Made by a program: the position numbers and the translations under genes. Of a stretch of 64,000 nucleotides of DNA, positions 7,398-35,884 are shown piece after piece. Source of the stretch: Escherichia phage JS98; sequence record NC_010105.1; one strand, given 5' to 3'. The stretch's first letter is position 1; every line of letters starts with the position of its first letter. Below the pieces are notes generated by a model. It had not been told where the DNA came from. It saw only the letters and a list, made by a program, of their open reading frames with translations, and made no database searches.

Positions 7398-7436
7398 AAT
7401 AATTTCCTCAGTTTAAAATTTATAATCCGTGGGACC

Positions 7437-7466
7437 ATTATACTCTGGTCCCAAGAGTTTGTAAAC
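7437..7466 (-). promoter_or_regulatory. sigma70-type early promoter (GTTTACA -35, 17-bp spacer, TATAAT -10) with inverted repeat GGGACC/GGTCCC flanking the -10
   Basis: Read on minus strand: GTTTACAAACTCTTGGGACCAGAGTATAATGGTCCC upstream of 7068-7397. Confidence 0.55.
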
Positions 7467-7666
7467 TATTTTTGTGCTAGTGCGCCTTTCCAACCTTCAT
7501 ACATCGCGGCGGCTGATATTAATATTGCTCCTGCGCATTTTGAATATTTGTTATTCCAAAACCAGTTTAGAAAAACTTCGTCATCAATACCTTGAGCTAC
7601 CATATTTTCAAAGAACTGACGACGGGCTTCAGCAATTCGTTGTGATAATTTAGATTCAGGATTCAT
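7466..7666 (-). CDS. hypothetical protein (66 aa)
   Basis: Intact ORF. Confidence 0.4.
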   Translation of the reverse strand: MNPESKLSQRIAEARRQFFENMVAQGIDDEVFLNWFWNNKYSKCAGAILISAAAMYEGWKGALAQK

Positions 7667-7805
7667 TTAAATTTTCCAGTTGCCGTTTTCATCAATAAAT
7701 TCAATCCAGTCATTTACTGACCACTTAGTCGTATCGCCTTTTGGAGCAACATTTAAGGTGTATAATCCTTGTTTAAAAAGCATACGTTTGATATTCATAT
7801 TTTCC

Positions 7806-8099
7806 TCAGCTGTAACGATAGCACTCGTTTGATTTACGTTTTGCAACTCGATGAGAAGTATTGTAATCAGGTTCATCGTCGTTGTAAACATCTTTTTTCA
7901 GCTTTCTCACTTCTTTACGAAGTTGGCGATTCATTTCATTCTTAACTTCAGAATCAACGCCACGCATACGTTTCCACTTGTCAGAACGGAAGATATTTTC
8001 TTCAACTCGTTCCTGACTTACGCCGTCTGGTGCTTTACGACGTCCGGAATAATAAAAATCTTTTACAGACAATTCTTTACGACGGATAGTTTTACCCAT
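7806..8099 (-). CDS. hypothetical basic protein (97 aa)
   Basis: Lys/Arg-rich ORF. Confidence 0.4.
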   Translation of the reverse strand: MGKTIRRKELSVKDFYYSGRRKAPDGVSQERVEENIFRSDKWKRMRGVDSEVKNEMNRQLRKEVRKLKKDVYNDDEPDYNTSHRVAKRKSNECYRYS

Positions 8100-8101
8100 A
8101 G

Positions 8102-8356
8102 TTACCTCAACAGTTTGTATCCAATAAGGTTTTTAATGTACTGGATGTCTTTGATATCCAAATCCAACTTAAGGTCTTTCAGACGGTCGGCCAGGGTCAA
8201 AAAGGTTACATGCTTCCAATTCTTCACTGGGCAGCAATAAGTCTTAGGACCATTTGCAATTTCAATATTCTTATCAGTGACGGTGAGAAAAATTAGGCGC
8301 TCATCATCCAGATTAAGGGTGACGACATTTTTCATTGAATGCAATTTCAGGCTCAT
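8102..8356 (-). CDS. hypothetical protein (84 aa)
   Basis: Intact ORF. Confidence 0.4.
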   Translation of the reverse strand: MSLKLHSMKNVVTLNLDDERLIFLTVTDKNIEIANGPKTYCCPVKNWKHVTFLTLADRLKDLKLDLDIKDIQYIKNLIGYKLLR

Positions 8357-8558
8357 AATTTAATTTCCTTAGCTATCGAACAAAACACACCGCGGTCACA
8401 AATCATTTTAATATTAAGGTCAATTATGGTATACCACACGTCCAGGCTAGATATTTCAGTTACTAGAACAGCTTTGCCGTTGATTGAATAATACTGGTTG
8501 ACTTTAATTTCTTTATCTTGGATAGTCATAATGTTCTCCTCATGTGTTGATAGGATAG

Positions 8559-8587
8559 ACTATAACACGTGAGGAGAGGAAGTAAAC
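8559..8587 (-). promoter_or_regulatory. early promoter (GTTTAC -35, 17-bp spacer, TATAGT -10)
   Basis: Minus-strand GTGTTTACTTCCTCTCCTCACGTGTTATAGTCTATCC, followed by GAGGAG RBS and a 53-aa ORF. Confidence 0.4.
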
Positions 8588-8588
8588 A

Positions 8589-8906
8589 CTAATCTTCAAT
8601 TAAATCTCGGTCATAGCCAAGTTCAATCAAAAGGGATTTGAAGGCAGGAATATTTTCTATTTTCTTATTATCAACAAAGATTACAGGATAGCGTATAGCT
8701 AAGCTCTTGAAGCCAGCACGTTTGGCCAATGATACTATAAGAGGCTTATCATATACTGCGCCTGACGGCGTCTGGTTAATTACAGGATAGAAAGTATATT
8801 GGATAGAAAGGGAATTTAGGAGCGATAGAACTGCAATGCACCCTGGACAGCGCATGACCGTCTCAGGGATACCGTAAATCTCAATTTTAGTTAACTTTTG
8901 GTCCAC
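8589..8906 (-). CDS. glutaredoxin/NrdH-like redoxin (CPGC active site)
   Basis: KIEIYG beta-strand then CPGC dithiol and C-terminal glutaredoxin-like region; start placed at GTG 8904-8906, 8 nt after an AAGGAG RBS (start uncertain). Confidence 0.5.
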   Translation of the reverse strand: MDQKLTKIEIYGIPETVMRCPGCIAVLSLLNSLSIQYTFYPVINQTPSGAVYDKPLIVSLAKRAGFKSLAIRYPVIFVDNKKIENIPAFKSLLIELGYDRDLIED

Positions 8907-9183
8907 AGGAAATAACTCCTTGGTAGTCCCAAGTTTTGATAACTTCGTCTTCATTAGTTCCATACGGGATGTAAATCTGGATAAGGAACCCAGTATCATC
9001 AAAAGAGAAGTAGACGGTAGGTTTAATACCGTGAATCTCTGAAAGAGCATAGATGTCCTTGAGGTCATCTTCCTTACCGATAAAGAATTCTGGGTTCAGG
9101 TCACAGTCATGGAAGTACCATTCTTGGCCAAACTTGTCCCAAGCCGCCCAATCAGTAGCTACATACTCTTCAAAACGTTTCAT
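8887..9183 (-). CDS. hypothetical protein (98 aa)
   Basis: Intact ORF; 20-nt overlap with glutaredoxin start. Confidence 0.4.
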   Translation of the reverse strand: MKRFEEYVATDWAAWDKFGQEWYFHDCDLNPEFFIGKEDDLKDIYALSEIHGIKPTVYFSFDDTGFLIQIYIPYGTNEDEVIKTWDYQGVISCGPKVN

Positions 9184-9407
9184 TCTTTCACCTTCATCAT
9201 TTTAGAAATAACACTATGAACAGACTGGATTCGTTTTTCGAACTCAGACTCTTCAAGACCCTTTTCAGTACTCAGCGCACCAATCATCACAAACAGCAAT
9301 CCAAATGGGATAACCAGGATTAAAAGGCACACAATAAACAGGACAAATGTAATATTGGCCAGGATATCAGAAGCAGCATTACGAAATTTATTCATACGAT
9401 AGTCCAT
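9180..9407 (-). CDS. small membrane protein (75 aa, one TM helix)
   Basis: Hydrophobic stretch ITFVLFIVCLLILVIPFGLLFVMIGAL. Confidence 0.4.
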   Translation of the reverse strand: MDYRMNKFRNAASDILANITFVLFIVCLLILVIPFGLLFVMIGALSTEKGLEESEFEKRIQSVHSVISKMMKVKE

Positions 9408-9501
9408 GTATTAGTTACAACAAATAACCATTGAGCAGGATACTCAACACCCATGCGCCGGATAATATCATTCATAGATTCGGTTAAGGCGTAAAAATTA
9501 A

Positions 9502-9975
9502 TCATTTAAGCGATTTCCTCAGTTGTTTTTTAAATGAATCAACCATTTGTTTCTTTGTGTCAGATTCATTATAAGTCATTCCATGTGAAAGCATTTCAGC
9601 AATCATTTCTTCCTTACCTAATCTACTGAACTCTTTGGTTTTATCAGGAACGAAATTAGGATGGATATTGTTTTCAGTGTAATCAGATTTCAGATAGACC
9701 AGCAAATTCTCTAACCATTCGAGGTAGTCAACGTTTTGACCTTTAAGACCAGAACGGTTGAACTTATGCTTCATTTGTCCTTCTGCAGCATTGCACAGGT
9801 TACATAGTAAACCACGAACCTTACCAGCTTTTGGCCCGCTCAATTCATGGTCGTGGTCAAGGTGGTTACTTTGAACATCAGGGTTTAATTCACGTTTACA
9901 AATCAAACACTTACCACATTGTGCATCATAAAGTTTTTGTTTTTCTTCTTTGTATAATTTGCCGGTCAACAACAT
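9502..9975 (-). CDS. 49: endonuclease VII (Holliday-junction resolvase) gp49
   Basis: 157 aa; MLLTGKLYKEEKQK.YDAQ.GKCLIC.RELNPDVQ.NHLDHDHEL.GPKAGKVRGLLCNLCNAAEG is essentially T4 endo VII. Confidence 0.93.
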   Translation of the reverse strand: MLLTGKLYKEEKQKLYDAQCGKCLICKRELNPDVQSNHLDHDHELSGPKAGKVRGLLCNLCNAAEGQMKHKFNRSGLKGQNVDYLEWLENLLVYLKSDYTENNIHPNFVPDKTKEFSRLGKEEMIAEMLSHGMTYNESDTKKQMVDSFKKQLRKSLK

Positions 9976-10010
9976 AATAAACCCTTACCATTATTAGATA
10001 AGGGTATTTA

Positions 10011-10196
10011 TTATTTTTCAAATGTGCTATAGAACGAACGGTGCAACCGTTTAAATTGACGAATCATCTTTTTGGTAGGACGAGTATACAATCCCACACA
10101 GGTGGCCATAAACTGGTCAGTAGGGCTTCCTTTGATAAGAAGTTTCCAGACCTTGTCACCGTTTAACTTTTCGGTATAGACTAATGCAGTTTTCAT
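10011..10196 (-). CDS. hypothetical protein (61 aa)
   Basis: Intact ORF. Confidence 0.35.
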   Translation of the reverse strand: MKTALVYTEKLNGDKVWKLLIKGSPTDQFMATCVGLYTRPTKKMIRQFKRLHRSFYSTFEK

Positions 10197-10495
10197 GCGA
10201 CCTCAAATTCATTATCATCGTTAGTCCAAAAACACCAGAATGAAGCTTTAGTATCTTCAAACATTTCTTTAGTGTATTCGTATACCTTACCATTGAATTC
10301 GATAGCAGTTACGCCAATGATTTCAGGATTGCCCCATGGAGAAATCTCCACCTTCAAGATTTTAACTTCAGCACCTTCACAGAGCTCGCCTGACTCAAAA
10401 CCGCGATTGCCGTTTAATTCAGGCCAGTCAACATAATGGTCGACATCTTCTTCAGTAATACGAACAGTTTTACCTTCAAATTCAAATAAATTCAT
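10193..10495 (-). CDS. hypothetical acidic protein (100 aa)
   Basis: Intact ORF. Confidence 0.4.
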   Translation of the reverse strand: MNLFEFEGKTVRITEEDVDHYVDWPELNGNRGFESGELCEGAEVKILKVEISPWGNPEIIGVTAIEFNGKVYEYTKEMFEDTKASFWCFWTNDDNEFEVA

Positions 10496-10708
10496 CAGAA
10501 GGCCTCATCAGAAAAGCGGAGTTGAGCTTCAAGCCAATGGATATAATCGGCTGCGGCTTTAATTAAATCAGACTCTAGGTCAGGTAAAGAACCCGAATCC
10601 GATAACTCGTAAAGCGAATGTTCAATCAGACGGCCTTTATGACGGCCAATTTCAATTTTGGTACTCATATCCAAACTCCATATCGATTAAATCATTGTTT
10701 GAAGGTTC

Positions 10709-10738
10709 ATTATACTCTATTTCGGAATCGTTGTAAAC
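10709..10738 (-). promoter_or_regulatory. early promoter (GTTTACA -35, 17-bp spacer, TATAAT -10)
   Basis: Minus-strand CGGTTTACAACGATTCCGAAATAGAGTATAATGAACC upstream of a 57-aa ORF (10497-10670). Confidence 0.5.
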
Positions 10739-10784
10739 CGGTTCCTCTGGCTCGGTAGTTTCCCACCGAGCGACATACCATGGC

Positions 10785-11093
10785 TTAATGGTCACGCCAC
10801 CAACTACTTACTTCAAAATCAGGCTCGCCGTCTTCCCAATACCAAGGGCCGATTGGATGCCAATCACCATGCTCATCTTCTTCAAATTCTTCGGATTCGA
10901 GCCCAACGTATTGCCATTGGACTTCATAAGCAATGTCACCGATTACAACGGTGTTCTCGCCATACGGATTAGCCACAACAAAGTCTATACCTTCTGCTTT
11001 AGCCAGCCAAACCATATATTCGTATAGTTTATATTCTAGGTCATCTTCGGTGCCATCACCTAGAAAAATGGTTTGTTCGTTTAATTCAATCAT
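10785..11093 (-). CDS. hypothetical acidic, Trp-rich protein (102 aa)
   Basis: Intact ORF. Confidence 0.4.
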   Translation of the reverse strand: MIELNEQTIFLGDGTEDDLEYKLYEYMVWLAKAEGIDFVVANPYGENTVVIGDIAYEVQWQYVGLESEEFEEDEHGDWHPIGPWYWEDGEPDFEVSSWWRDH

Positions 11094-11347
11094 AATTCCA
11101 CCATAAATTCAAATAGCTGGTCACGTACACAAGTATCAGTCCAACCCCATTCAGTGGCTTCTTCTTTTAACCAATCCGGGAGATTTACCAATACGGTTTC
11201 TTTACTAGGCGCGGGAGTATCAAACTCACTTGCAAACTCTCTTGCGCAGGTTTTATAGGCCATATCAAATTCGGTCATTTGAAGTTCCAGAATGAAGCAC
11301 CAACCAGAAATAAAGGCCAACAAATCATAGACGTCAGCCACCAACAA
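11090..11347 (-). CDS. hypothetical protein (85 aa)
   Basis: Intact ORF. Confidence 0.4.
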   Translation of the reverse strand: MLVADVYDLLAFISGWCFILELQMTEFDMAYKTCAREFASEFDTPAPSKETVLVNLPDWLKEEATEWGWTDTCVRDQLFEFMVEL

Positions 11348-11432
11348 AAGTCACCGGAATCATCTAATTTAGCTAGGGTCTTAGCATAACCAATACCGAT
11401 GATAAGATACAAAACACCCAACGATAATTCAA

Positions 11433-11696
11433 TCATTTGAAATATGCTCGCAGTTGGTCAAAGCCACCAATAGAAGTTCCGTCTGGAGCAAATACCTGAG
11501 GCATGGTCAAACCTACTTGAGATTCACGTCCAAGAGCAGCCAGGAGTTCAGCAATCTTCTCATCATCAAATACGCCTTTTTCCGGCATCACGTTAATGAA
11601 TTCGTAAGGTTGTTTCTTAACATCAAGCAGACGTTTGGCATTATCACAGAAAACACAACGGTGAATATTTGAATCGTAACCATAAACTTTAAACAT
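11433..11696 (-). CDS. nrdC: phage thioredoxin/glutaredoxin NrdC
   Basis: 87 aa; MFKVYGYDSNIH.CV.CDNAKRLL.VKKQP.EFIN.MPEKGVFDDEKIAELL matches T4 NrdC, CVxC active site. Confidence 0.9.
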   Translation of the reverse strand: MFKVYGYDSNIHRCVFCDNAKRLLDVKKQPYEFINVMPEKGVFDDEKIAELLAALGRESQVGLTMPQVFAPDGTSIGGFDQLRAYFK

Positions 11697-11697
11697 T

Positions 11698-11936
11698 TTA
11701 AATTCCTAATACTTGTTTGAATGCTTCAGAACGGTCAAGTTCTGTTCCATATTTTTCTAGGTGTTCGTATTTTAAATCATACACATCAGATAGTATATTA
11801 TTATACGAACGAGTTAAAGCAGATTTCAATACTGAATAACTGTCCGGGAATTTACCATGCTCTTTATAATAAGCCAGAGTAAGTTCGCGGACTGCCTTAT
11901 CGGCAGCCTCTACATATTCTTTACGCTTTGCCATTT
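11698..11936 (-). CDS. hypothetical protein (about 79 aa)
   Basis: ORF; start set at internal Met after upstream stop. Confidence 0.35.
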
Positions 11937-12142
11937 TCATCTCGCTCAAATCGGTGTTTACAATGACGGCATTTATACTGAAGCGGATTATGACGCCATT
12001 GAACCAACTGGACCTGTTCAGTTCCACATTCAGGACAGTTTGGAACATTCTTAGAAGCTTTTTCACGACGTTCGACAATTTTAATAACAGCATTCCAATC
12101 AGGAATAGTTTGGTCAATATCGTCAGCTAATTGGTATTTCAT
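11921..12142 (-). CDS. zinc-ribbon protein (73 aa)
   Basis: CPEC...CRHC four-Cys arrangement. Confidence 0.45.
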
Positions 12143-13146
12143 TTCAACAGCTCCAGGGCTTGTTCCAGTTTATCCAGACGATTGGTAGACTCTTCCCAAA
12201 GTTTCTTGGCAGCAGTATATTGTCCGGTCAGTTTTTTGTTAATAGCCAAGGCATCTTTATACGCTTTTTCTAAGGCAACGATTTCCGGTAACTTGGATTT
12301 AGTAATTGGTGTATGGGCCATGATAGGGCTGTTCAAGTCGTTAATCAAGTCTTCTAATGTAGCAGGCTCTTTATCAGTGTTCACAATTTCCTCACATTTT
12401 TCTTGGTAAATTTCAGCATCGGTTTTTGGAACAGGGCATTTGATTTCGCGAACTGTTACTAAAACTTCATATCCTTTCCAGCCTAAGTGGTGGTTGATTT
12501 CTTGAATCTCATATTTCTCTACTGTATCCATCAAAGCTAAAGCTTGTTCTACAATATTCAGGGTATTGTAGGAAATATCTTGGTATTTCGAAACTTCAAC
12601 TTCTTTAGGTTTCCAACTAGGCGACCAAATAATAGAAATAAGTACCTTCCCTTTATAGTTGTTTGTTTTAATCATGCCATCAGCCATAGGGTGGATAGTA
12701 CGACAATCACCCTTTACAAAGGTTTTGGTTGCTGCTTTTAGAATTAATGCGGAGTTAGCCTTAAATTCACCGGCCCAACGTAAAGGAAATAAGCCCTTAG
12801 GGTCGGTACCTTTCATTTTGATATAGCTTTTTAAAACATCACCAAACCATTGGTAGCTAACAACGTGGCTGGAACCTGGGTGTTTCTCTCTGCCAAACTC
12901 TGAAAGGATATCCTTATTAACCAGCCGCGAAAGCAGTCGAGAACCTTTAAATGTATCTATGATATCAGGGATAAACAAACGCCCTGCAATCTTTTCGATT
13001 TCATCTTTGAAACAACCGGATAAGGCTTTATCAATTTGGTCTACCCATTTATTGATATTGGAAACTATCACCTCATATGGGGTTAATGGAGGGGTATTGT
13101 CAGTGATATACTTAGTAAAGGCATTGATGTATTCAGTACGGGTCAT
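12139..13146 (-). CDS. hypothetical protein (335 aa) with C-terminal coiled coil
   Basis: Start at MTRTEYINAF (ATG 13144-13146) after GAGGAGAATATC RBS; no motif recognised. Confidence 0.5.
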   Translation of the reverse strand: MTRTEYINAFTKYITDNTPPLTPYEVIVSNINKWVDQIDKALSGCFKDEIEKIAGRLFIPDIIDTFKGSRLLSRLVNKDILSEFGREKHPGSSHVVSYQWFGDVLKSYIKMKGTDPKGLFPLRWAGEFKANSALILKAATKTFVKGDCRTIHPMADGMIKTNNYKGKVLISIIWSPSWKPKEVEVSKYQDISYNTLNIVEQALALMDTVEKYEIQEINHHLGWKGYEVLVTVREIKCPVPKTDAEIYQEKCEEIVNTDKEPATLEDLINDLNSPIMAHTPITKSKLPEIVALEKAYKDALAINKKLTGQYTAAKKLWEESTNRLDKLEQALELLK

Positions 13147-13174
13147 GATATTCTCCTCAGTAGTTGATAAAAGG

Positions 13175-13204
13175 ATTATACTCCATCCGTCCTTGGATGT
13201 AAAC
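13175..13204 (-). promoter_or_regulatory. early promoter (GTTTACA -35, 17-bp spacer, TATAAT -10)
   Basis: Minus-strand GTGTTTACATCCAAGGACGGATGGAGTATAATCC upstream of 12139-13146. Confidence 0.55.
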
Positions 13205-13205
13205 A

Positions 13206-14099
13206 CTATTTTAGAGCTAATAGTGCCGCGCTGAGCTTGTCACGCTGGTTTTCCATATTCTTGATGCGAATCAATACGTCTTGAATGCTCTTTTTCTCAT
13301 CTTCAATCTGACCATTTAAACGGTGGATTGATTCCTGAATGCTATCTGCATAATAGGTCTCAATAGGTTTCATCGTAGGGTTAGTAACAACCAAAGAATT
13401 ATCAGGTTTAATTTTCCAATGATATGGTTTGGAATTGAATGGACTAGGCACAGCAGTGGTTTTGAATTTATCATAGGCTGCATACTGGCCTACGCTGTCA
13501 CATGATACTGCAGAGATACGACGTTCCATTTGTGGGTCCTTTTGTTGGGATTGATAAGGGGCATAAGACAAAAGATATTCACGAGTTAGTTTAACATTAA
13601 AATACACTGCATCGGCTCGCCCAGAACAATCAGCGTATTCATCGGTTGTAACTTTATATGATTCTACGGCCTTAATACGAGTCATTGCTTCTCTGAATAA
13701 GGTTTCGAATGCTTCACGAAGGGCCTTATTACCTTTTGAGGTAGGACGGAAACGAACTTGAATACCGTCAGCCAGAATATTAATGACTAGGTTACGAGCC
13801 GTAAAATTAATACTTTTGATATTAACAGGAACCGTAGAAATACGCCCTGCAGTGGCCAAGAGGTCTTTGATATTAGCCCGCAATGTTGCACCAAACAGGT
13901 GGGCTGGGCAACGGCAATAATCGTTCAAAGAACCGATATAAGTTCCTTTACGGCCTACACCATAAGTATAATTACCATTACAAATATGACCAAAGTCAGC
14001 TAGCCGATCGATAGCGATACGACGAGTCGTGTCATGGTCGTATATAGAGTATTCTTTACGTGTTTTAATGTTCATATTAAAGTCCAAATAATTTTTCAT
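13206..14099 (-). CDS. hypothetical protein (297 aa) with C-terminal coiled coil
   Basis: Intact ORF; no motif recognised. Confidence 0.5.
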   Translation of the reverse strand: MKNYLDFNMNIKTRKEYSIYDHDTTRRIAIDRLADFGHICNGNYTYGVGRKGTYIGSLNDYCRCPAHLFGATLRANIKDLLATAGRISTVPVNIKSINFTARNLVINILADGIQVRFRPTSKGNKALREAFETLFREAMTRIKAVESYKVTTDEYADCSGRADAVYFNVKLTREYLLSYAPYQSQQKDPQMERRISAVSCDSVGQYAAYDKFKTTAVPSPFNSKPYHWKIKPDNSLVVTNPTMKPIETYYADSIQESIHRLNGQIEDEKKSIQDVLIRIKNMENQRDKLSAALLALK

Positions 14100-15259: not shown

Positions 15260-15288
15260 ATTATACCATCCTTGGTATAAAGCGTTTA
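15260..15288 (-). promoter_or_regulatory. candidate extended -10 promoter (TGGTATAAT) inside palindrome TTATACCA-TCCT-TGGTATAA; weak -35
   Basis: Minus-strand CCAAGGATGGTATAATGG upstream of 14377-15222. Confidence 0.3.
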
Positions 15289-15810
15289 TGCGAGAACCGT
15301 CTTTAAACGCTCTTCAAATTTCTGAAGCAGAGCTTGGCGTTCAGCTCGTTGTGATTTGTACTGCTCGATACGACCTGAAGTGAGGGCGTACTGTTCGTTT
15401 ACTGATTCCCGCATGAATTCAGGAATCTCTTTACAAGCTTTGATTTCGTCAAACTTATCAATAACCGCTTGTTGTTCAGCAATCAAGTTATCAAAATAAG
15501 CGATATCTGATTTAATGTTTGCCAGGTCAGATTCAGTAGGCATTAAACGTTTATTACGCTCAGCTTGATAAGCTTGGTTGGTTTCACGACTCCAGTGAAG
15601 AGTACGTTTTTTGTTAGTGTTTTTATAGAGCTCTACAATACCAACTGAATCGATGATAACAATCCAGTTCCAACGGCTTTTGTAAATCTCTCCTCCAGAT
15701 ATGGTAATCTCATTACCACAAGCAACGTCGTTAAAGAACTTGCTTTGTTTTTCAGATTTGAAATTACCATTGTTAAAATTAATCAGTGAAAAAATATCTT
15801 TAGCGTTCAT
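15286..15810 (-). CDS. hypothetical protein (174 aa) with C-terminal coiled coil
   Basis: Intact ORF. Confidence 0.45.
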   Translation of the reverse strand: MNAKDIFSLINFNNGNFKSEKQSKFFNDVACGNEITISGGEIYKSRWNWIVIIDSVGIVELYKNTNKKRTLHWSRETNQAYQAERNKRLMPTESDLANIKSDIAYFDNLIAEQQAVIDKFDEIKACKEIPEFMRESVNEQYALTSGRIEQYKSQRAERQALLQKFEERLKTVLA

Positions 15811-15824
15811 GATAACCTCCAGTA

Positions 15825-15866
15825 GTTGATAGGTCTATAGTATCATGTCTAATGGAGATGTAAACA
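15825..15866 (-). promoter_or_regulatory. conserved early-promoter cassette (PeSL-like): GTTTACA -35, extended -10 TGaTACTAT, conserved AGACCTATCAA downstream
   Basis: Minus-strand GTTTACATCTCCATTAGACATGATACTATAGACCTATCAACTACTGG; one of at least 11 near-identical copies. Confidence 0.55.
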
Positions 15867-15867
15867 A

Positions 15868-17591: not shown

Positions 17592-17618
17592 AACCCAAAA
17601 AAGGCCCGAAGGCCTTTT
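17592..17618 (-). terminator. rho-independent terminator
   Basis: Minus strand: stop codon then AAAAGGCC-TTCG-GGCCTTTT hairpin followed by TTGGGTTT. Confidence 0.6.
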
Positions 17619-20686: not shown

Positions 20687-20727
20687 TACTAAAACGAAAA
20701 AAGGTCCCACCGAAGTGAGACCTTTGA

Positions 20728-24759: not shown

Positions 24760-24778
24760 TTTGTAATCTCCTGTAGTT

Positions 24779-24816
24779 GATAGGTCTATAGTACCATGTC
24801 TACAGGAGATGTAAAC
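24779..24816 (-). promoter_or_regulatory. conserved early-promoter cassette (PeSL-like) with inverted repeat TCCTGTAG/CTACAGGA
   Basis: Minus-strand GTTTACATCTCCTGTAGACATGGTACTATAGACCTATCAACTACAGGAG upstream of regB. Confidence 0.55.
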
Positions 24817-24821
24817 TGCTT

Positions 24822-27068: not shown

Positions 27069-27086
27069 TTTTAATCTCCTGTAGTT

Positions 27087-27124
27087 GATAGGTCTATAGT
27101 ATCATGCCTACAGGAGAAGTAAAC
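27087..27124 (-). promoter_or_regulatory. conserved early-promoter cassette (PeSL-like); inverted repeat CTCCTGTAG/CTACAGGAG pairs the spacer with the denV RBS
   Basis: Minus-strand AAGTTTACTTCTCCTGTAGGCATGATACTATAGACCTATCAACTACAGGAGATTAAAAATG. Confidence 0.55.
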
Positions 27125-28241: not shown

Positions 28242-28246
28242 TGCTT

Positions 28247-28735: not shown

Positions 28736-28758
28736 AATTACCTCCTGATTATAGGAGG

Positions 28759-28766
28759 TATTTATA
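28759..28766 (-). promoter_or_regulatory. late promoter TATAAATA for gene e, inside an RBS-sequestering inverted repeat
   Basis: Minus-strand GATATAAATACCTCCTATAATCAGGAGGTAATTATG; CCTCC...AGGAGG hairpin encloses the RBS. Confidence 0.6.
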
Positions 28767-29445: not shown

Positions 29446-30029
29446 TTACGGCATTCCTCAATAAAAGAGTTTAATGTATTTTTCTTAGTGATATCGTCAT
29501 ATACCTTTTTAACTTTAGAAATACGAAAAGGTACTTCAATAACTGCAGTCCATAAAAATGATGCGATAAGTCCTAAGATAGCCGCAGACATCGCTGAAGC
29601 AAATAGCGTAATAGGCAGGTCATTATCCGTTGTCAGGAAAAACCCTAGGAGTGGGAAAAATAATATCCCCATCCAAACATAGAACCTAGAACTCACTAAT
29701 TTGTCGTATTCATCACTCCATGTACGAAAGCCGTATTTTTTGCTATAACAAATCAATGGGTCTGGTGTCTGTTCTTTATGGGGTTCCGGTTGCCAACCAT
29801 TTACGATATAGCCCATTTTATATTCCTCAATTAAAAGTTGTTTCATTTCAGCAGTACAACCCGACCAATCTATTGTACTGGCTGAAATTCCTTCATCGCC
29901 ATCATCAATATTTCGCCATGACTTTTTAATAATCATATTCTCACCACTTGGGATAATGATTCCGGCATTTTCGGGCCGACGGATGAAGTTTACATCAACA
30001 CCCATACAACCCGGTTCATAAAGGGCCAT
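29442..30029 (-). CDS. membrane protein (195 aa; soluble N-domain, C-terminal TM helices)
   Basis: Hydrophobic segments FYVWMGILFFPLLGFFL and LFASAMSAAILGLIASFLWTAVI. Confidence 0.45.
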   Translation of the reverse strand: MALYEPGCMGVDVNFIRRPENAGIIIPSGENMIIKKSWRNIDDGDEGISASTIDWSGCTAEMKQLLIEEYKMGYIVNGWQPEPHKEQTPDPLICYSKKYGFRTWSDEYDKLVSSRFYVWMGILFFPLLGFFLTTDNDLPITLFASAMSAAILGLIASFLWTAVIEVPFRISKVKKVYDDITKKNTLNSFIEECRK

Positions 30030-30715
30030 TACCAGCCCTCCATAGGGAATTCCAGATATACTTGGGCATTAACGCGGATTTCATTTGTAATCTTTTTAAC
30101 ACGGTCTGTATTACGAGACACACGACCAAACCAGCGCCAGCCATTACTTACTGCACGAGAACCTGTATGCCATGTCTGCCAATCAAACTGGAGCAATGTG
30201 CGGTCAGGAGCATCCCACTTGGTTAATTCATTAGACTCAATTTTTTCCAGAACTTCTTTATGCCACTGGCGATAGATAAGTTCGCCTTCAGGAATCTGGC
30301 TAAATTGTACAGTTCCGGTTGCAAAATAAGTAGGACACACATCAGCGTTAACAAGACCAAGAATATGTTCAGAATGGTATCGAGGATTATCATAATCAGG
30401 TTGCCCTGCAGTAATAAAGTGTTGACCAACTGGAATATCCGGACGCGGTACATCATCATGGTGATAACCTGGGATAGCAGGATACCAACCAGGCATAAGC
30501 ATATGAACTCGAGAATCAAATACAACCTGGTCGGTGTTCCAATCGTCCGGCAGGTTCATGATGAAGCTGCGAGTAATAGGACCACCGTTATCAAAAGCGA
30601 AGGCCAACGAACTGTTGAAGAACATAGTTTCGTTTTTGATTTTATCGTTAGAAATTTTACCGGCAAAACTACCTACTGCACGAGCTTGAGAATTAAAAGT
30701 TTTCGGGCTGTTCAT
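30029..30715 (-). CDS. hypothetical protein (228 aa); possible Fe(II)/2-oxoglutarate oxygenase-like (HxD...H...R)
   Basis: GYHHDD then about 100 aa later WHTGSRAVS...R; motif-level guess only. Confidence 0.45.
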   Translation of the reverse strand: MNSPKTFNSQARAVGSFAGKISNDKIKNETMFFNSSLAFAFDNGGPITRSFIMNLPDDWNTDQVVFDSRVHMLMPGWYPAIPGYHHDDVPRPDIPVGQHFITAGQPDYDNPRYHSEHILGLVNADVCPTYFATGTVQFSQIPEGELIYRQWHKEVLEKIESNELTKWDAPDRTLLQFDWQTWHTGSRAVSNGWRWFGRVSRNTDRVKKITNEIRVNAQVYLEFPMEGW

Positions 30716-30729
30716 AATATTTTCCTCAA

Positions 30730-30942
30730 TTACTTTTTGTTGAAAAAGTACATTTTACCTTTAGGGGATAAGGATACACGAAGTGCGTTACCGATACCAA
30801 CTGAACATTTAACCAGGTCAGCAGATTTCAATTCACCAAATGCTTGACGAAGGTCACCGTCACGAGTGTTAACCATCAGGCATTTAGCACCAGCTGCACG
30901 AACTTCGTTTAACATGTTGATTGCTTGGTTAGAAAGTTTCAT
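30730..30942 (-). CDS. hypothetical protein (70 aa)
   Basis: Start at MKLSNQAIN (ATG 30940-30942) after GGAGAA RBS; ORF-track N-extension runs through the promoter. Confidence 0.4.
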   Translation of the reverse strand: MKLSNQAINMLNEVRAAGAKCLMVNTRDGDLRQAFGELKSADLVKCSVGIGNALRVSLSPKGKMYFFNKK

Positions 30943-30970
30943 TTTATTCTCCATTTCACTCTGTTGTTTT

Positions 30971-31008
30971 GATAGGTCTATAGTATCACACCTATAGACC
31001 TTGTATAC
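30971..31008 (-). promoter_or_regulatory. conserved early-promoter cassette (PeSL-like)
   Basis: Minus-strand GTATACAAGGTCTATAGGTGTGATACTATAGACCTATCAAAACAACAG. Confidence 0.5.
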
Positions 31009-31020
31009 TGTTTTATGCAA

Positions 31021-31980
31021 TTATTTTGTGAAAGGACGAATTAAATGTTGGTTATCTTGGAACCGCTTGATGTAGTCATTTTCACCTAGCGTCTTATACA
31101 TATTCACTACAGCTTGGTAGTTTTCCCAGGCATACTCGCGGAACCAGCCTGAAGTGATTGAGGTACACACTTTCTCAAGAGCCATATAGAAACTTAACGA
31201 TGGTGAAATATTGAAGTCATTAGGAACCTGTGAACGTTCTAGGGCCAACACACAAGTTTCTTCATATACGCCAGCCAGTTTAATAGCTTCAGGCAAAGCT
31301 TCAAACTTCTCGCGTGAGGTCATGACTTCAGAACCGTCTTTCATATAAAAGGTATACGCTGGGCGTCCAGCCAATGCCACAGCTTCATGGATAGAGTCAT
31401 GGTCTAATGTATAAATGGTATCATTAAAGAACGATGATTTGTTTACATCCAATTTAGGATGAGAATAGCTCAACGTTTCTTTCTGGCGTTGCAGCATGAT
31501 TTCTTGGAGCTCTTCATTCAAGGTTACACCTTTATTACGAAGATATTTGATGTGGGACATCGTCTTCAAAAAGAACGGGTTGTTCTTCAAATAACGATGG
31601 CTCATTTTGATGGCCAGACAGATATCAGGTGTGGCCCAATAGAAACCCGTAAGACGGTCCTTTTTAATATGATTTTCGGCATATTTCAGGAGACGATAAC
31701 TTGAGGTGAAATCTTCGTCCTGAAGCTCGCCGGTGATTTCTCGTACGTTAGTCAGGGCACGGACGATATAAGCTTCAAAATAGGTTTCTTTACCATTGTA
31801 CATACATTTAAAGGCCTGGACATCAGGATTATCCACAGGAACATGGGCACCGAACATCCGAGCTTTAAAGTGATTCCACGAGCCTTGGTCGGCAATAAAA
31901 TCCCAATCAGAATTTTCGATATACTTACTTTCAATCAGACCAGCGTGGTGCAGTGCACGAGAACCAATAACTAGCATCAT
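31021..31980 (-). CDS. hypothetical protein (319 aa) with N-terminal GS...DxD nucleotidyltransferase-like motif
   Basis: GSRALHHAGLIESKYIENSDWDF near N-terminus; GAGGAAAAT RBS. Confidence 0.45.
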   Translation of the reverse strand: MMLVIGSRALHHAGLIESKYIENSDWDFIADQGSWNHFKARMFGAHVPVDNPDVQAFKCMYNGKETYFEAYIVRALTNVREITGELQDEDFTSSYRLLKYAENHIKKDRLTGFYWATPDICLAIKMSHRYLKNNPFFLKTMSHIKYLRNKGVTLNEELQEIMLQRQKETLSYSHPKLDVNKSSFFNDTIYTLDHDSIHEAVALAGRPAYTFYMKDGSEVMTSREKFEALPEAIKLAGVYEETCVLALERSQVPNDFNISPSLSFYMALEKVCTSITSGWFREYAWENYQAVVNMYKTLGENDYIKRFQDNQHLIRPFTK

Positions 31981-31992
31981 AATATTTTCCTC

Positions 31993-32162
31993 ATTAATAA
32001 AGACGAGTTACTTCATATTTACCCAGTTCAGATTTTTTTGCTTCAATACGCGTTGCGGCTAGATTAGCAGCCTCTAGTGAAGAAAATTGGACCACTTGGG
32101 AAGTATTCTGCCTTACACCACCTTGTGGGTGAGTAACAAAAACAATAAGAACATTATACATA
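31993..32162 (-). CDS. hypothetical small protein (56 aa)
   Basis: MYNVLIVFVTHPQGGVRQ... with GAGGAAAATATT RBS; below ORF-track cutoff. Confidence 0.3.
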
Positions 32163-32182
32163 ATATTTTCCTCAGAGTAAAC

Positions 32183-32422
32183 TTAAATTTCAGCAACGTA
32201 ATCGTTATGCAATTCCCACATATCATCAGAATTATTCTTAATGATAGGAATTATCTCATTAGAGATTTCTTCTGCATAAGGGTCATTGATACAGTGGGCA
32301 TCTTCAAAACGAACACCGTAATCAGACTTCTTATAGGCAAAGCCATAAATCTTTTTAAACTTAGCACGACTAATTCGTACCGGCTCATCAGACTTATCAG
32401 ACAGCGGAGAGTAATACCACAT
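32183..32422 (-). CDS. hypothetical protein (79 aa)
   Basis: Intact ORF. Confidence 0.4.
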   Translation of the reverse strand: MWYYSPLSDKSDEPVRISRAKFKKIYGFAYKKSDYGVRFEDAHCINDPYAEEISNEIIPIIKNNSDDMWELHNDYVAEI

Positions 32423-32466
32423 AGTGTTCTCCTCATGTTGGTGTACGGTAATAGTATCACGGTTTT

Positions 32467-32811
32467 CTAGAGTTGTACATCACTTCTACAATATTCTAAA
32501 AATAATTTATCGTTGTCTACTGTATCCCAACGTCGCCAAGATGGATTCCAGACCAAAGCGTTGTCACCACAATCATTGAGCTTAAAATGGTCATAGTACA
32601 TAGCTATGTGTCTAGTCTCGTCACCAGAGAACCCTAGTATAGGCTCGCCGTGGGTATGATACATATGATGGTGCATTGAGAGGTCGCATTTATAAAACAT
32701 CTCACGTTTACCACGGACGAACAAGAAAGCTTGCCCATTCATATAGAATTCTTTATCCGTTTTCAAAAGGTATTTGAATACTGAATCTTTATGCATAAGT
32801 CCTCCTACCAC
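32467..32811 (-). CDS. hypothetical His-rich protein (114 aa)
   Basis: HHHMYHTH cluster. Confidence 0.4.
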   Translation of the reverse strand: MVGGLMHKDSVFKYLLKTDKEFYMNGQAFLFVRGKREMFYKCDLSMHHHMYHTHGEPILGFSGDETRHIAMYYDHFKLNDCGDNALVWNPSWRRWDTVDNDKLFLEYCRSDVQL

Positions 32812-32826
32812 ATCCTTGTGGTTAAA

Positions 32827-33054
32827 TTATTTTCCTAACGAAATACGAGTAGGTTTTTTGCCAAAATATTCTTCATAAGAACCATCTAAACGACCTGCTT
32901 TAGACCGACAATACGAATCGTACTTTTTGTAATAAGTCATCTCAGTATTATAACGCGGGTGTCTATCGGCCATAATAATACTTAACGGCCAACCTTTGGC
33001 ATAATCACGAAGACCGTTTATTTTACGAATGTATCTTTTCTTTAATTTTAGCAT
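32827..33054 (-). CDS. hypothetical basic protein (75 aa)
   Basis: Intact ORF. Confidence 0.4.
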   Translation of the reverse strand: MLKLKKRYIRKINGLRDYAKGWPLSIIMADRHPRYNTEMTYYKKYDSYCRSKAGRLDGSYEEYFGKKPTRISLGK

Positions 33055-33272
33055 GAGCTCGGGTACCAGATTTTACCATCGGGACGAGCAACGAAGGTGC
33101 GACCAGCTTCTTCGCCGTAACAAGAGCTATTCAGCCAATCTTCAAGACGAACTTCACCATCGTAATCGTCTAACTCAACACCAAAACTTTGAGCAGAAGC
33201 CATATCTTTTACTTTCTTATACAGGGCAGCCAGTTCAAGAGCAGCTTTTTCTAATTCATCAATATCAGTCAT
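33048..33272 (-). CDS. WSSS-C tail family paralog 1 (74 aa), ends WYPSSC
   Basis: Acidic helical protein; internal WLNSSC and terminal WYPSSC. Confidence 0.5.
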   Translation of the reverse strand: MTDIDELEKAALELAALYKKVKDMASAQSFGVELDDYDGEVRLEDWLNSSCYGEEAGRTFVARPDGKIWYPSSC

Positions 33273-33282
33273 TTTTTATTCC

Positions 33283-33492
33283 TTAGCAAGACATAGAGGA
33301 GCTAAACCAGAAACCTTCACCTTCTGGGATACCGTAGTCATCACGGACCCATTCGTAATCATCATATTCCGGACTAGAAGCCGGAATATATTCTTCGCCA
33401 CCAGCGTGGAAGTGCTGACCTGTTTCGTCAGCCACGGACTGGCCTTTACGTACTAATTCACGGATTTGTTTTTCGATTTCATCAATAGTCAT
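33283..33492 (-). CDS. WSSS-C tail family paralog 2 (69 aa), ends WFSSSMSC
   Basis: Shared C-terminal motif. Confidence 0.5.
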   Translation of the reverse strand: MTIDEIEKQIRELVRKGQSVADETGQHFHAGGEEYIPASSPEYDDYEWVRDDYGIPEGEGFWFSSSMSC

Positions 33493-33501
33493 TTTATTAC
33501 C

Positions 33502-33699
33502 TTAGCATTCGTAAGAGGATGATACCCAAGAGGTACCACTAATAGTAATACAACCGTTATAAAGCGTGATATGTCGTTCTAAGTCACGAACACCATCGAT
33601 ATAGATATCAGCTTCTTCGCGTTCTTCTTTACAAATCTGGATAACGTTTTCAATAGCTGCGGCGGCAGTACGGATTGCACAATCTAATTCACGAGACAT
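33502..33699 (-). CDS. WSSS-C tail family paralog 3 (65 aa), ends WVSSSYEC
   Basis: Shared C-terminal motif. Confidence 0.5.
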   Translation of the reverse strand: MSRELDCAIRTAAAAIENVIQICKEEREEADIYIDGVRDLERHITLYNGCITISGTSWVSSSYEC

Positions 33700-33708
33700 A
33701 ATATTTCC

Positions 33709-33990
33709 TTAACATTCAGAAGAAGAGGACACCCAACCACCATTTTCCAGGTCAGTTGTATAGTCATGAGTATTAACAATAGCCCATTCAGGATGACCAT
33801 CTTCTTCCCAATGGGCAAGGTCAGCTTTCAAGGCACCAGGAGAATAATAGTCACCGCCCATACCGCGAGCAGGGTATATATTAAAATGAGTCTCATATTT
33901 GTCTGCAATTTCCTCGGCACGACGAATAGCTTCATGAATTTCTTTTACTGCGGCCAGAAGCTCTGGGTTGTTATGATTATCATTCATCAT
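33709..33990 (-). CDS. WSSS-C tail family paralog 4 (93 aa), ends GGWVSSSSEC
   Basis: Shared C-terminal motif. Confidence 0.5.
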   Translation of the reverse strand: MMNDNHNNPELLAAVKEIHEAIRRAEEIADKYETHFNIYPARGMGGDYYSPGALKADLAHWEEDGHPEWAIVNTHDYTTDLENGGWVSSSSEC

Positions 33991-33999
33991 AGCTTTTCC

Positions 34000-34290
34000 T
34001 TAGCACATTGCTGAAGAGGAGACCCAGGCACCAACTGTAACGACACCGTTTTCAACTTCACCGCCATTGTTTTCAATTTCATCTTTAAACCACTGGGAGC
34101 ATTCATAACCAACAGGGTAGTATGTACGTCCTGAGCCATAATCACCTGTTCCGAATTGAATACCATACTTATCGGCAATAGCTTCACATTTGTGTTCGAT
34201 GATATCCACTTTATTCAGAAGAGCATAGATAGCCTTTTCTGCAGATTTCTCGTCGTTGTATTCAGGGATTTCAATTTCAATTTTATTCAT
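34000..34290 (-). CDS. WSSS-C tail family paralog 5 (96 aa), ends GAWVSSSAMC
   Basis: Shared C-terminal motif plus internal YECSQWF. Confidence 0.5.
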   Translation of the reverse strand: MNKIEIEIPEYNDEKSAEKAIYALLNKVDIIEHKCEAIADKYGIQFGTGDYGSGRTYYPVGYECSQWFKDEIENNGGEVENGVVTVGAWVSSSAMC

Positions 34291-34640
34291 GATTTACATT
34301 CCTTAATAAAGGTTTCAAGGTCATTACGGTTGGTTTGTTTTACATACTCATTATAATTAGCCATCTCTAAAGCATATCTCTTACGGATGGGAGCATTCAA
34401 AGCATTTGTATGGCAAATATCATACACGAGAGGGATAAAATAAGCCACGACGGCCGGAGCGATTATCATATAGAAACCCATCTCAATAGGCATGACTCCT
34501 TCGATTGCAGCCATAACTGTGGTCATTACCAGACCAACCAGACCGCCGAGCATACCTGTGACAATTCCCGTGAATAAGGAAATAGCAATATCATATTCAG
34601 CCAATTGATAAACATGCGATGAAAGACTAGGCCGTTCCAT
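34287..34640 (-). CDS. membrane protein (about 117 aa, 2-3 TM helices)
   Basis: Hydrophobic segments GIVTGMLGGLVGLVMTTVMAAI and FYMIIAPAVVAYFIPLV. Confidence 0.45.
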   Translation of the reverse strand: MERPSLSSHVYQLAEYDIAISLFTGIVTGMLGGLVGLVMTTVMAAIEGVMPIEMGFYMIIAPAVVAYFIPLVYDICHTNALNAPIRKRYALEMANYNEYVKQTNRNDLETFIKECKS

Positions 34641-35169
34641 TTTGAACCTCTTTAGCGTATTCACGGCATTCAGCAATAAAACGATTAAGCTTCCGTTGTT
34701 GTTTACGACTTTCTAATGTGTACTCAGCAGTTAAGATACCAAGCTCGGCTTTATCATAATTTTTAATATCGGTGTAAGATGGCCGACGGTCGACCATTCC
34801 AAATACATCACCATTTTCTAAAGCCACATAGCATACTAAATGGTAATCATCGTCTGCCATATTAAGAAGCACACAATCATTGCTCTCATTTAAAGAATAT
34901 ACTGAATAACGTAGTCCAGCGAATTCCACTCGTTGAATAGCCAGATTTACGTCAATAATTTCCAAAGCATCTTCAAAAGAAAGGTCTTCAGCTAAAGCAA
35001 AAATAAAAGGTAATTTGGTAGTATCGCCACGGCTAGATGTTCTGCTTAAGAAATCGTTTGAATAGCCTAGGTCTTGGCGAATTCTATAAAGAACTGAATT
35101 GGTTTCATGGGAAAGACCACTATTTTTAAACCAATCAATATTTGATATAAGGTTATCATATAAACTCAT
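34627..35169 (-). CDS. hypothetical protein (180 aa)
   Basis: Intact ORF; first gene after terminator hairpin. Confidence 0.45.
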   Translation of the reverse strand: MSLYDNLISNIDWFKNSGLSHETNSVLYRIRQDLGYSNDFLSRTSSRGDTTKLPFIFALAEDLSFEDALEIIDVNLAIQRVEFAGLRYSVYSLNESNDCVLLNMADDDYHLVCYVALENGDVFGMVDRRPSYTDIKNYDKAELGILTAEYTLESRKQQRKLNRFIAECREYAKEVQNGTA

Positions 35170-35193
35170 AATATTCTCCTCTCCTCCAAATAG

Positions 35194-35210
35194 GGAGACC
35201 GAAGTCTCCC
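35194..35210 (-). terminator. terminator-like hairpin GGGAGAC-TTCG-GTCTCCC (weak U-run)
   Basis: Perfect 7-bp stem directly after the stop of 35218-35811. Confidence 0.4.
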
Positions 35211-35217
35211 GGTAACA

Positions 35218-35811
35218 TTACTTAAGTGAATTAATGTAGTCTTCGATATCGGCTGAAGTCGTGTCCATTCCAACTTGTGGGCCTTTAAACGTTTCTACAC
35301 GCAGCAGAGTATCTTCAATATCAATCTTAGTCAGTGCAGCTATTTCAACCACATCATCGGCAGTAGCAATACCAAGGGCGGCCATATTACGAGTTTCACG
35401 GATGTACTCGAGCTTAACAGCCAGTTCCTGACGAGAGTCATCAAGTTCCTTGACCTTCAGTTTAATTTCATTACGCATTTCGATATAATCGTCAGCTTTC
35501 TTACGAAGTTGAGTGGCTGTACGACGATAAAGGAGGCCGAGTTTAGCATGTACCTGAACATCGGCGCCTTCGGCAATCAGTTTACGAATTTCGCGTTCTT
35601 TAGAAGCAGCCAGTTGGTCTTTTTCATTTGCCAATGCACGAATGCGTTTTTCTTCATTCACAGACTTAACATGAGCAGTCTGGAGTTCGGTAATTTTATC
35701 AATCAGGGTAGAAGCAGCTTTAGTATACTGGTCTTCGATTGACAGGTTCTGAGTCATTGCGGTACCCAGTTTAGAACGGATGAACTCAACAATTTTCTTT
35801 AAAGTATTCAT
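35218..35811 (-). CDS. coiled-coil protein (about 197 aa); possible PspA/IM30-like
   Basis: Start at [14 protein letters not shown] (ATG 35809-35811); long heptad-like helices; PspA likeness is impressionistic. Confidence 0.45.
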
Positions 35812-35854
35812 AGTATTTCCTTCAGTCGGTTGGTATTTTGTAATCCATGAGGAC

Positions 35855-35884
35855 ATTATACCCTGTCCTCTGAGGGTTGTAAAC
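35855..35884 (-). promoter_or_regulatory. early promoter (GTTTACA -35, 17-bp spacer, TATAAT -10) with inverted repeat GAGGAC/GTCCTC around the -10
   Basis: Minus-strand TGTTTACAACCCTCAGAGGACAGGGTATAATGTCCTCATGG. Confidence 0.55.

Follow-up and report, generated by a model that had tools for sequence, protein, structure and literature searches.

Why should the -10 hexamer of an early phage promoter lie inside or against a perfect inverted repeat? The question is raised by four sites in a 64,000-nucleotide stretch of Escherichia phage JS98 (NC_010105.1; the whole stretch is called the window below). An earlier note, made from the sequence alone, saw perfect palindromes on the -10 of four TATAAT-type early promoters, read them as repressor operators that could mark a regulon, and added that they would also fold as hairpins in read-through RNA. 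This last remark is the part of that reading that our analysis supports. We consider it likely that the inverted repeats are the stem-loops of composite cassettes of the promoter-early stem-loop (PeSL) type, which mark the ends of upstream transcription units, and not repressor sites. The same architecture extends beyond the four sites and is genome-wide.

Four promoters and their inverted repeats

Over window positions 7000-9000 the nucleotide sequence matches Dhakavirus phages (JS10 and relatives) at 97-98%, and judged by sequence the window is that of a JS98/JS10-like Dhakavirus, a T4-type phage. According to the JS10 annotation and the lists of open reading frames (ORFs), the whole block of genes 45 through 4 (window 1 to ~44,270) is encoded by the minus strand, and the promoters of these early genes are therefore read on that strand (Table 1). 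The four sites occupy intergenic gaps of 59, 63, 68 and 76 bp, each running from the stop codon of the upstream gene to the Shine-Dalgarno sequence (SD) and ATG of the next: 55.3 to 55.2 (site 1, a 68-bp gap from the gp55.3 stop at 7466 to the gp55.2 start at 7397), an ORF to nrdC.4 (site 2), nrdC.8 to nrdC.6 (site 3), and a 132-aa ORF to e.6 (site 4). An A/T-rich stretch with the upstream stop codon precedes the -35 (CAAAAATAG, AAATAAAATG and CTAAAATAGTG, each running into TTTACA), and GAGGA, GGAG or AAGGA with an ATG is found 35-45 nt past the -10 in the four gaps.

Three of the four promoters are standard early promoters. The exact string TTTACA-N17-TATAAT occurs four times across the window against 0.03 expected, and sites 1, 2 and 4 account for three of these. 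The remaining copy (10709-10737) lies within coding DNA in the 49.1 region, has no palindrome and serves as an internal control; it might be a real internal promoter. Site 3 had been counted as a fourth early promoter, but it is not a standard one, because it lacks a TTTACA -35 and instead has an extended -10 and a MotA-box-like cGCTTTA 12 nt upstream of the -10. It resembles a promoter of the extended -10 or MotA type. The MotA box has the consensus (a/t)(a/t)(a/t)TGCTT(t/c)A and has its centre at about -30, with a TAnnnT -10 following 11-13 bp downstream. Site 3 reads aaaCGCTTTA 12 bp from TATAAT, with a C in place of the first T of TGCTT, the form in which the Mot box is given by Comeau 2014 (PMC4122927). 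The TG of the extended -10 could make this promoter independent of a -35 and of MotA alike. A second perfect 8-bp inverted repeat adjoins site 3, extending over the stop codon of nrdC.8 and into the MotA-box-like sequence.

All four inverted repeats are present where they had been reported, but not all of them lie on a -10 or exceed chance. The repeats at sites 1, 3 and 4 overlap the -10 and are beyond chance expectation, whereas that at site 2 is confined to the spacer between -35 and -10 and is at chance level. At site 1 the reported GGGACC-N10-GGTCCC is part of a longer stem with 8-bp arms (7430-7453), whose 5' arm lies in the spacer, whose loop and 3' arm contain the -10, and whose 3' arm ends at about +1. 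Folded as RNA, this stem reaches -16 kcal/mol (z=-4.05 against shuffles), and the probability of an arm of at least 8 bp overlapping the -10 is 0.004 when the flanks are shuffled. For site 2 the fold gives z=-0.67, with equally good folds in 40 of 200 shuffles, and the alternative pairing AAGGA-N14-TCCTT has P=0.24. Rfam searches of the window at gathering thresholds returned three tRNAs only and no match at the sites.

The repeats might nevertheless be accidents of composition or by-products of the copying of promoter cassettes, a reading that we hold to be improbable. It draws on site 2, on repeats with 6-bp arms, whose window-wide count is near the shuffle expectation (190 versus 165), and on the fact that sites 1 and 4 are paralogous (see below) and so not independent of each other. 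Against it stand z-scores of -2.6 to -4.4 and the distribution of the longer repeats: the window has 26 with perfect arms of at least 8 bp, where shuffles have 10.5±2.7, and intergenic DNA, 5.9% of the window, contains 14 of them, an enrichment of ~9-fold or more.

The shared CAAGGA[TC]GG core that had been ascribed to three of the sites did not survive inspection. It is exact at sites 2 and 3 only, in different registers relative to the -10, and a search allowing one mismatch gave 19 matches versus 17.4 expected by chance; we thus rejected CAAGGAYGG as an operator motif. The string forms the upper part of a hairpin in the spacer (CCA-AGGA-TGG), which runs into the TG of the extended -10. It appeared common to several sites because a small spacer hairpin of this kind, xxCCA-(A/T)GGA-TGGxx with the 3' arm entering the extended -10 TG, recurs at window sites 2 and 3 and at JS10 positions 123880, 169399, 27017 and 44433. 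We also dropped the idea that an SD-like 5' arm and the ATG in TATAATG start a mini-ORF: at site 1 the frame is wrong and the ORF short, and the arrangement is not a general one.

Base-pairing in orthologous cassettes

To see what is conserved at site 1, we compared 40 loci upstream of gp55.2 homologues. Where the promoter is of the early type, the register of the stem is constant and the arms change: GGGACC/GGTCCC, GGGACC/GGTCCT (with a G·U pair), GGGAGC/GCTCTC, GAGAGA/TCTCTC and GAGGAC/GTCCTC. In one alignment of these loci (A1), six core pairs are intact in 11 of 11 sequences, 4 of 8 pairs have changed on both sides, and 89.8% of cells are paired versus 76.7% after shuffling (a value as high arose in 0 of 500 shuffles) and 39-59% with a slid partner. 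T4-like relatives have in the same slot a MotA-type promoter (TTTGCTATAG...TAnnnT...CTATGTCAAA) within a 15-17-bp hairpin, the centre of which covaries (GAGAT/ATCTC, GCCAT/ATGGC, GGCAT/ATGCC, GGGTTCT/AGAATCC), with compensatory changes in 5 of 15 pairs. In T4 itself just 13 bp separate 55.3 from 55.2, so that this phage offers no orthologous element; its RefSeq record has no annotated promoter or terminator features in that gap. At site 4 the arms in e.6 orthologues read GAGGACA/TGTCCTC, GGGAACAT/ATGTTCCC or TGTGTAGGAGA/TCTCCTACACA, each around the -10.

Three further observations bear on the nature of the paired molecule. Loop lengths vary from 3 to 11 nt among orthologues. Mismatches inside stems, scored symmetrically, comprise 13 G·T or T·G cells on the sense strand and 0 A·C cells; the 8 T·C cells in the same count represent one conserved bulge, and A·C was seen twice outside it, in the window's version of the stem at 36304-36335 and in the closing pair of site 2. 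Finally, locus L026 has lost both promoter hexamers and kept the stem, as GAGGAC-ctagt-GTCCTC with a 5-nt loop, and in another clade the slot of seven loci (L011-L017) is filled by a canonical terminator, AAGGGCttcgGCCCTTTTTT, in place of a promoter. Pairing that is kept as sequence changes, variable loops, strand-asymmetric wobble and survival of the stem without the promoter therefore argue for a hairpin of the sense strand, that is of RNA, rather than a duplex operator. The covariation shows sense-strand base-pairing, and not arm sequence, to be under selection. For sites 1 and 4, where compensatory changes preserve pairing in orthologues and paralogues, it already refutes the chance reading, which stands for site 2.

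These comparisons bear on the operator proposal, in which a dimeric phage or host protein would bind the duplex palindromes and repress early promoters by occluding the -10. Like lac O1, lambda OR or LexA boxes, the repeats have dyad symmetry over the -10 hexamer, a typical place of repressor action; sites 1 and 4 share an N8-N10 spacing; and T4-type early transcription is switched off after a few minutes. Yet no common operator emerges, since the sites vary in their arms, in loop length and in register: the half-sites in the window are unlike one another (TGGGACCA, GAGGACA, TTATACCA, CATCC), and none is common to the ~15 JS10 stems on a -10. In orthologues the arms change by compensatory substitution, the tolerance of G·T but not A·C would be meaningless for a double-stranded operator, and neither the stem without a promoter in L026 nor the terminator in its place in L011-L017 fits a repressor site. 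Moreover, the known shut-off of T4 early genes works through AsiA, MotA, Mod and Alt (Hinton 2010, PMC2988021) and is not known to involve operator-binding repressors. We regard operators as extremely unlikely, and with them a hidden repressor regulon on these early promoters, a false lead that can be removed.

Probable read-through hairpins at the ends of transcription units

If the stems act in RNA, their distribution relative to other transcript ends becomes informative. We inspected every minus-strand intergenic gap of the window and found ~20 promoters, the majority associated with a hairpin; four added members have stems around or over TACTAT or TATTAT -10 hexamers (Table 1), and as the counterpart of one of them (36304-36335) L061 and L065 have a perfect stem of 13 bp that includes one G·T. 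In JS10, sampled as three stretches covering the early regions, a stem overlaps the -10 in ~15 of 38-43 candidate early promoters, with a dozen unrelated arm sequences. Other promoters are preceded by separate canonical terminators, in the window at 4943-4962, 17599-17618, 20700-20725, 35193-35210 and 36707-36728; in both phages nearly all of these have UUCG-type tetraloops and T5-6 tails. The two arrangements are largely alternatives. When stems with a score of at least 7 that overlap the promoter-to-ATG region were counted in JS10 (pooling the spacer-to-SD stems described below), they were found at 1 of 8 promoters behind a canonical terminator versus 19 of the 30 others (Fisher p=0.016). 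Because its slot is interchangeable with a true terminator, the stem appears to be a boundary element of the upstream transcription unit.

The same distribution bears on a different view, that a GC-rich discriminator and spacer were selected for open-complex kinetics, as in stringent-type promoters, the complementarity being incidental. The discriminator is indeed occupied by the 3' arms (GGTCCC, GTCCTC), and the 5' arms end in a conserved (A/G)G just before the -10. However, such tuning leaves unexplained why spacer and discriminator covary as complements, why the stem persists after promoter loss and why it is absent at terminator-preceded promoters, and we think it very unlikely.

We propose instead that promoter and stem-loop form one cassette, which consists, in order, of an A-rich segment containing the stop codon of the upstream gene, a strong sigma70-type early promoter (TTTACA-N17-TATAAT, or a MotA or extended -10 promoter at site 3), the stem-loop, and the SD and ATG. 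The arms use sequence-neutral positions, namely the spacer (~ -22 to -15) and the discriminator (~ -7 to +1), so that promoter and hairpin fit into the same ~24 bp and the -10 comes to lie in the loop or the 3' arm. Transcription from the embedded promoter starts immediately past the stem, whose 3' arm ends at about +1, and the hairpin would therefore form only in RNA read through from an upstream promoter. There it could serve as a unit boundary that attenuates or pauses read-through, or that shields the 3' end of the upstream mRNA from exonucleases, and be equivalent in its job to the separate UUCG-loop terminators ahead of other promoters in the genome. Pausing or attenuation, factor-dependent termination and 3'-end protection of the upstream message are all possible modes of action. 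Repeated cassettes may double as recombination points at which small ORFs are inserted or deleted.

It is important to point out what weighs against this proposal. No -10-enclosing stem is followed by a U-tract (3' flanks CGGATTATAA, ATGGATTACA and similar, with at most 3 T per 10 nt), so that efficient intrinsic termination is not predicted by the standard rule, and terminator scans return none of the four stems. A canonical intrinsic terminator was accordingly rejected for the -10 stems. The contingency test in JS10 covers few promoters (n=38), relies on our own promoter and terminator calls and pools mixed stem types. Sites 2 and 3 lack informative variation: the site 3 stem is unchanged in 8 of 9 Dhakavirus loci and has one pair broken by an unpaired change in L051, and the site 2 arms are invariant in 6 Dhakavirus loci, with a closing A·C in the window where relatives have A-T (JS10, L054 and L055 form a better 6-bp hairpin, CATCCA-agga-TGGATG). 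The orthologues are phylogenetically related, and therefore the cell counts exceed the number of independent events. A role for a hairpin of the non-template DNA strand stays conceivable in the strict sense, G·T being tolerated in single-stranded DNA too. Finally, a literature search found no transcript 3'-end data for this phage group and no usable maps of 3' ends or transcription start sites for T4 or JS98.

A bolder idea, which we judge unlikely, is that the -10 hairpins, lacking a U-tract, bring about a distinct, non-canonical ending or processing of read-through transcripts exactly at the embedded +1. A phage or host factor might then be needed, for example Rho, NusA, RNase E or an early protein that binds RNA. 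If this were true, every message of the downstream gene would have the same 5' end whatever its origin, and hairpin and promoter would together be a self-contained insulator, allowing ORF cassettes to pass from genome to genome while leaving neighbouring genes unaffected. As a separate observation, a motif GGAT(T/A)A(T/C)AAA is conserved just 3' of the hairpin, at ~ +3 to +13 (window 7418-7429 and 35837-35847; L008-L022 and L063-L069), and is kept where a plain terminator replaces the promoter (L011-L017: ...CCCTTTTTTGGATAATAAAAT). It could be an element of the 5' untranslated region or a processing site, or the site of such a factor.

Table 1. Promoters, stem-loops and related inverted repeats; coordinates are window positions except where JS10 or a locus is named
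Feature	Coordinates	Strand	Evidence or remark
Site 1 early promoter, TTTACA-N17-TATAAT	7437..7465 (-35 7465-7460; -10 7442-7437)	-	12/12 match
Site 1 stem-loop, TGGGACCA-gagtataa-TGGTCCCA, 8-bp arms	7430..7453	-	RNA fold, shuffles, orthologue covariation
Site 2 early promoter, TTTACA-N17-TATAAT	13175..13203	-	Upstream of nrdC.4 homologue (ATG 13146)
Site 2 weak spacer repeat, CATCC-aaggac-GGATG (CATCC-N6-GGATG), 5 bp	13184..13199	-	Chance level
Site 3 promoter, extended -10 TGgTATAAT with GCTTTA	15260..15283 (-10 15265-15260; GCTTTA 15283-15278)	-	Upstream of nrdC.6 homologue
Site 3 stem-loop, TTATACCA-agga-TGGTATAA, 8 bp, -10 in 3' arm	15261..15280	-	z=-3.2, P=0.008
Perfect 8-bp repeat adjoining site 3, AGCGTTTA-N15-TAAACGCT	15281..15311	-	
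Site 4 early promoter, TTTACA-N17-TATAAT	35855..35883	-	Between 132-aa ORF stop (35888) and e.6 start (35811)
Site 4 stem-loop, GAGGACA-gggtataa-TGTCCTC, 7 bp, encloses -10	35849..35870	-	z=-2.6, P=0.0175
Added stem, AGGTCTATAG-gtgtgata-CTATAGACCT, 10 perfect bp around TACTAT -10	30974..31001	-	z=-4.36, P=0.0005
Added stem, imperfect 12 bp, TATTAT -10 in 3' arm	36304..36335	-	z=-4.35
Added stem, GGGCTTTAGT-N6-ACTATAGCCC around TACTAT -10	40222..40247	-	
Added stem, AAGGTCTATAG...CTATAGCCCT around TACTAT -10	40587..40614	-	z=-3.85
Spacer-to-SD stem, regB	24777-24821		
Spacer-to-SD stem, denV	27085-27124		
Spacer-to-SD stem, 55.6	8545-8588		
Spacer-to-SD stem, nrdC.8	15826-15867		
Spacer-to-SD stems, JS10	7738, 56049, 58336, 138945, 168988		
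Spacer-to-SD stem, L020	~513		

PeSLs, cassette exchange and other hairpins

PeSLs have been described in the T4-type phages phi1/RB49 (Arbiol 2010, PMC2839356) and in PST/T4 and nt-1/KVP40 (Comeau 2014, PMC4122927). Their anatomy, an upstream stop in an AT-rich stretch, -35 and -10, a stem-loop, then SD and ATG (PMC2839356, PMC4122927), matches that seen here, and the PST/T4 promoter consensus TTTACW-N17-TAYWAT (PMC4122927) agrees with sites 1, 2 and 4, though not with site 3, which has no -35. The stem of a PeSL may lie between the two boxes, overlap either of them, stand upstream or end just short of +1. As in PeSLs, the stem overlaps the -10 (sites 1, 3 and 4) or falls between -35 and -10 (site 2, at chance level), and G-T pairs, which are marked in the published stems, occur here too, as do dispersed copies in hyperplastic regions and cassette-bounded ORF insertions and deletions. 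The differences are that our stems are of mixed sequence (GGGACC, GAGGAC, AGGTCTATAG), unlike the GGGG...CCCC of phi1/RB49, and that PST stems are drawn just upstream of the promoter whereas many here overlap the -10. Both promoter activity and terminator or attenuator activity of PeSLs come from phi1 elements in lacZ reporters only; the terminator claim rests on a single GC-rich phi1 stem, which reduced lacZ read-through as strongly as rrnB T1 (PMC2839356). For JS98 the 2010 paper mentions 'PeSL-like sequences' near g43 only (PMC2839356); the PeSL-type cassettes of Dhakavirus are previously uncatalogued.

Our comparison thus places the early promoters of Dhakavirus (JS98/JS10) in the PeSL class and goes beyond the original papers: pairing rather than sequence is under selection, this selection is strand-specific, which fits RNA, the stem outlives the promoter, and overlapping stems and separate terminators are largely alternatives. 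It also sharpens the question that PeSLs pose, namely what a hairpin over the -10 that has no U-tract does to read-through transcripts in T4-type phages. Such cassettes should be of use in annotating transcription units and, because they are recombination points, in engineering therapeutic T4-like phages.

Signs of cassette exchange are present in the window and its relatives. The site 4 cassette is 79% identical over 86 nt to that of site 1 (7395-7473), and the two are best described as paralogous dispersed cassettes; family-II cassettes have 8 further matches in the window. In L020 and L021 gp55.2 is driven by a site 4-type cassette, and e.6 in L062 has a different cassette. L060 (IMGVR_UViG_2974741249) lacks window 35901-36334, which is one ORF plus one cassette, with its junction inside a ~24-nt ATGAAATAA..TGTTTACA repeat common to the two neighbouring cassettes; this difference reads as a PeSL-type deletion or insertion. 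The same locus also lacks a second segment, window 36678-37385.

Such events raise the alternative that the repeats work as DNA, as hairpins or cruciforms in supercoiled or single-stranded phage DNA that either offer a single-stranded -10 to sigma70 or promote recombination, through PeSL mini-circle formation or as targets of a structure-specific protein such as endonuclease VII. The cassette-bounded insertions and deletions and the tolerance of G·T in single-stranded DNA are compatible with it, and the authors of the PeSL work speculated that the stem-loop is a target of recombination proteins and mapped one crossover to a loop (PMC2839356). But the L060 junction lies in the A-rich/-35 repeat, outside the stem. 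Arms of 6-8 bp with loops of 8-10 nt are by established DNA energetics poor cruciform formers, and a cruciform needs both strands paired, yet the mismatches are strand-asymmetric, a sense-strand G·T being an A·C on the other strand. The distribution complementary to that of RNA terminators likewise points to a function in RNA, and we hold a DNA structure to be quite unlikely.

Three other known systems help to place the RNA hairpins that we favour. Rho-independent terminators resemble them in having a GC-containing hairpin right after the stop codon, and the two swap positions (L011-L017, JS10), but the hairpins here have no U-tract, have loops of 8-10 nt and were missed by the terminator scan. 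Promoter-middle stem-loops (PmSLs) of phage nt-1 (Comeau 2014, PMC4122927) combine a Mot box, a -10 and a stem-loop much as site 3 and the T4-like site 1 orthologues join a Mot-box-like GCTT, a correctly spaced -10 and a stem-loop. They differ in that the box of site 3 is imperfect (cGCTTTA) and its MotA dependence putative, and in that the Mot box forms the outer part of the stem in the T4-like site 1 orthologues. T4 genes e, soc, 49 and I-TevI have translational switches in which a promoter lies in a hairpin, reportedly the work of McPheeters in 1986, Barth in 1988 and Gott in 1988. There too both arms are present in read-through RNA only and transcripts of the embedded promoter lack the 5' arm. 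The embedded promoters here, however, are early or middle and not late, and the four stems, unlike the T4 switches, cannot act by blocking translation, because they do not include the ribosome-binding site: sequestration of that site was rejected for them, as the SD lies 35-45 nt downstream of the stem.

Sequestration does apply to a second class of hairpins, which share the logic of the T4 switches. In these, an anti-SD sequence in the spacer (TCTCC...) pairs over 9-12 bp with the downstream SD, leaving the -10 and +1 in a ~23-nt loop, and the ribosome site would be hidden in read-through RNA only. We found such spacer-to-SD stems in the window at regB, denV, 55.6 and nrdC.8 and elsewhere in JS10 and L020 (Table 1), with arms that vary by locus (ATCTCCTGTAG/CTACAGGAGAT, CTCCATTTGTT/AACAAATGGAG, CATCTCCATTAG/CTAATGGAGATG). 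In the T4-like phages of L018, L019 and L032 (~270 and 820), stems are instead found around the -35, as AGGGTG-tttacaa-CACCCT followed by TTT, with a T·G variant in L019; they appear to be another PeSL subclass.

Several other inverted repeats in the window lie at or near ribosome-binding sites or promoters. At the lysozyme gene e, a perfect repeat with 8-bp arms, TACCTCCT-N6-AGGAGGTA (28739-28760), spans the ribosome-binding site and resembles the hairpin that sequesters this site in early transcripts of T4 gene e. A hairpin directly before the ATG of gene 49, encoding endonuclease VII (ACCCTTA-N11-TAAGGGT, 9981-10005), is presumably that of T4 gene 49, which hides the ribosome-binding site in early RNA. 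The repeat TATAAATA-N7-TATTTATA (44239-44261) consists of two late-promoter boxes, inverted relative to each other, in the intergenic gap from which gene 4 (minus strand) and gene 53 (plus strand) diverge. Lastly, a perfect 8-bp hairpin between genes 45 and 44 (AGGGAGGA-aat-TCCTCCCT, 185-203) holds an SD-like sequence.

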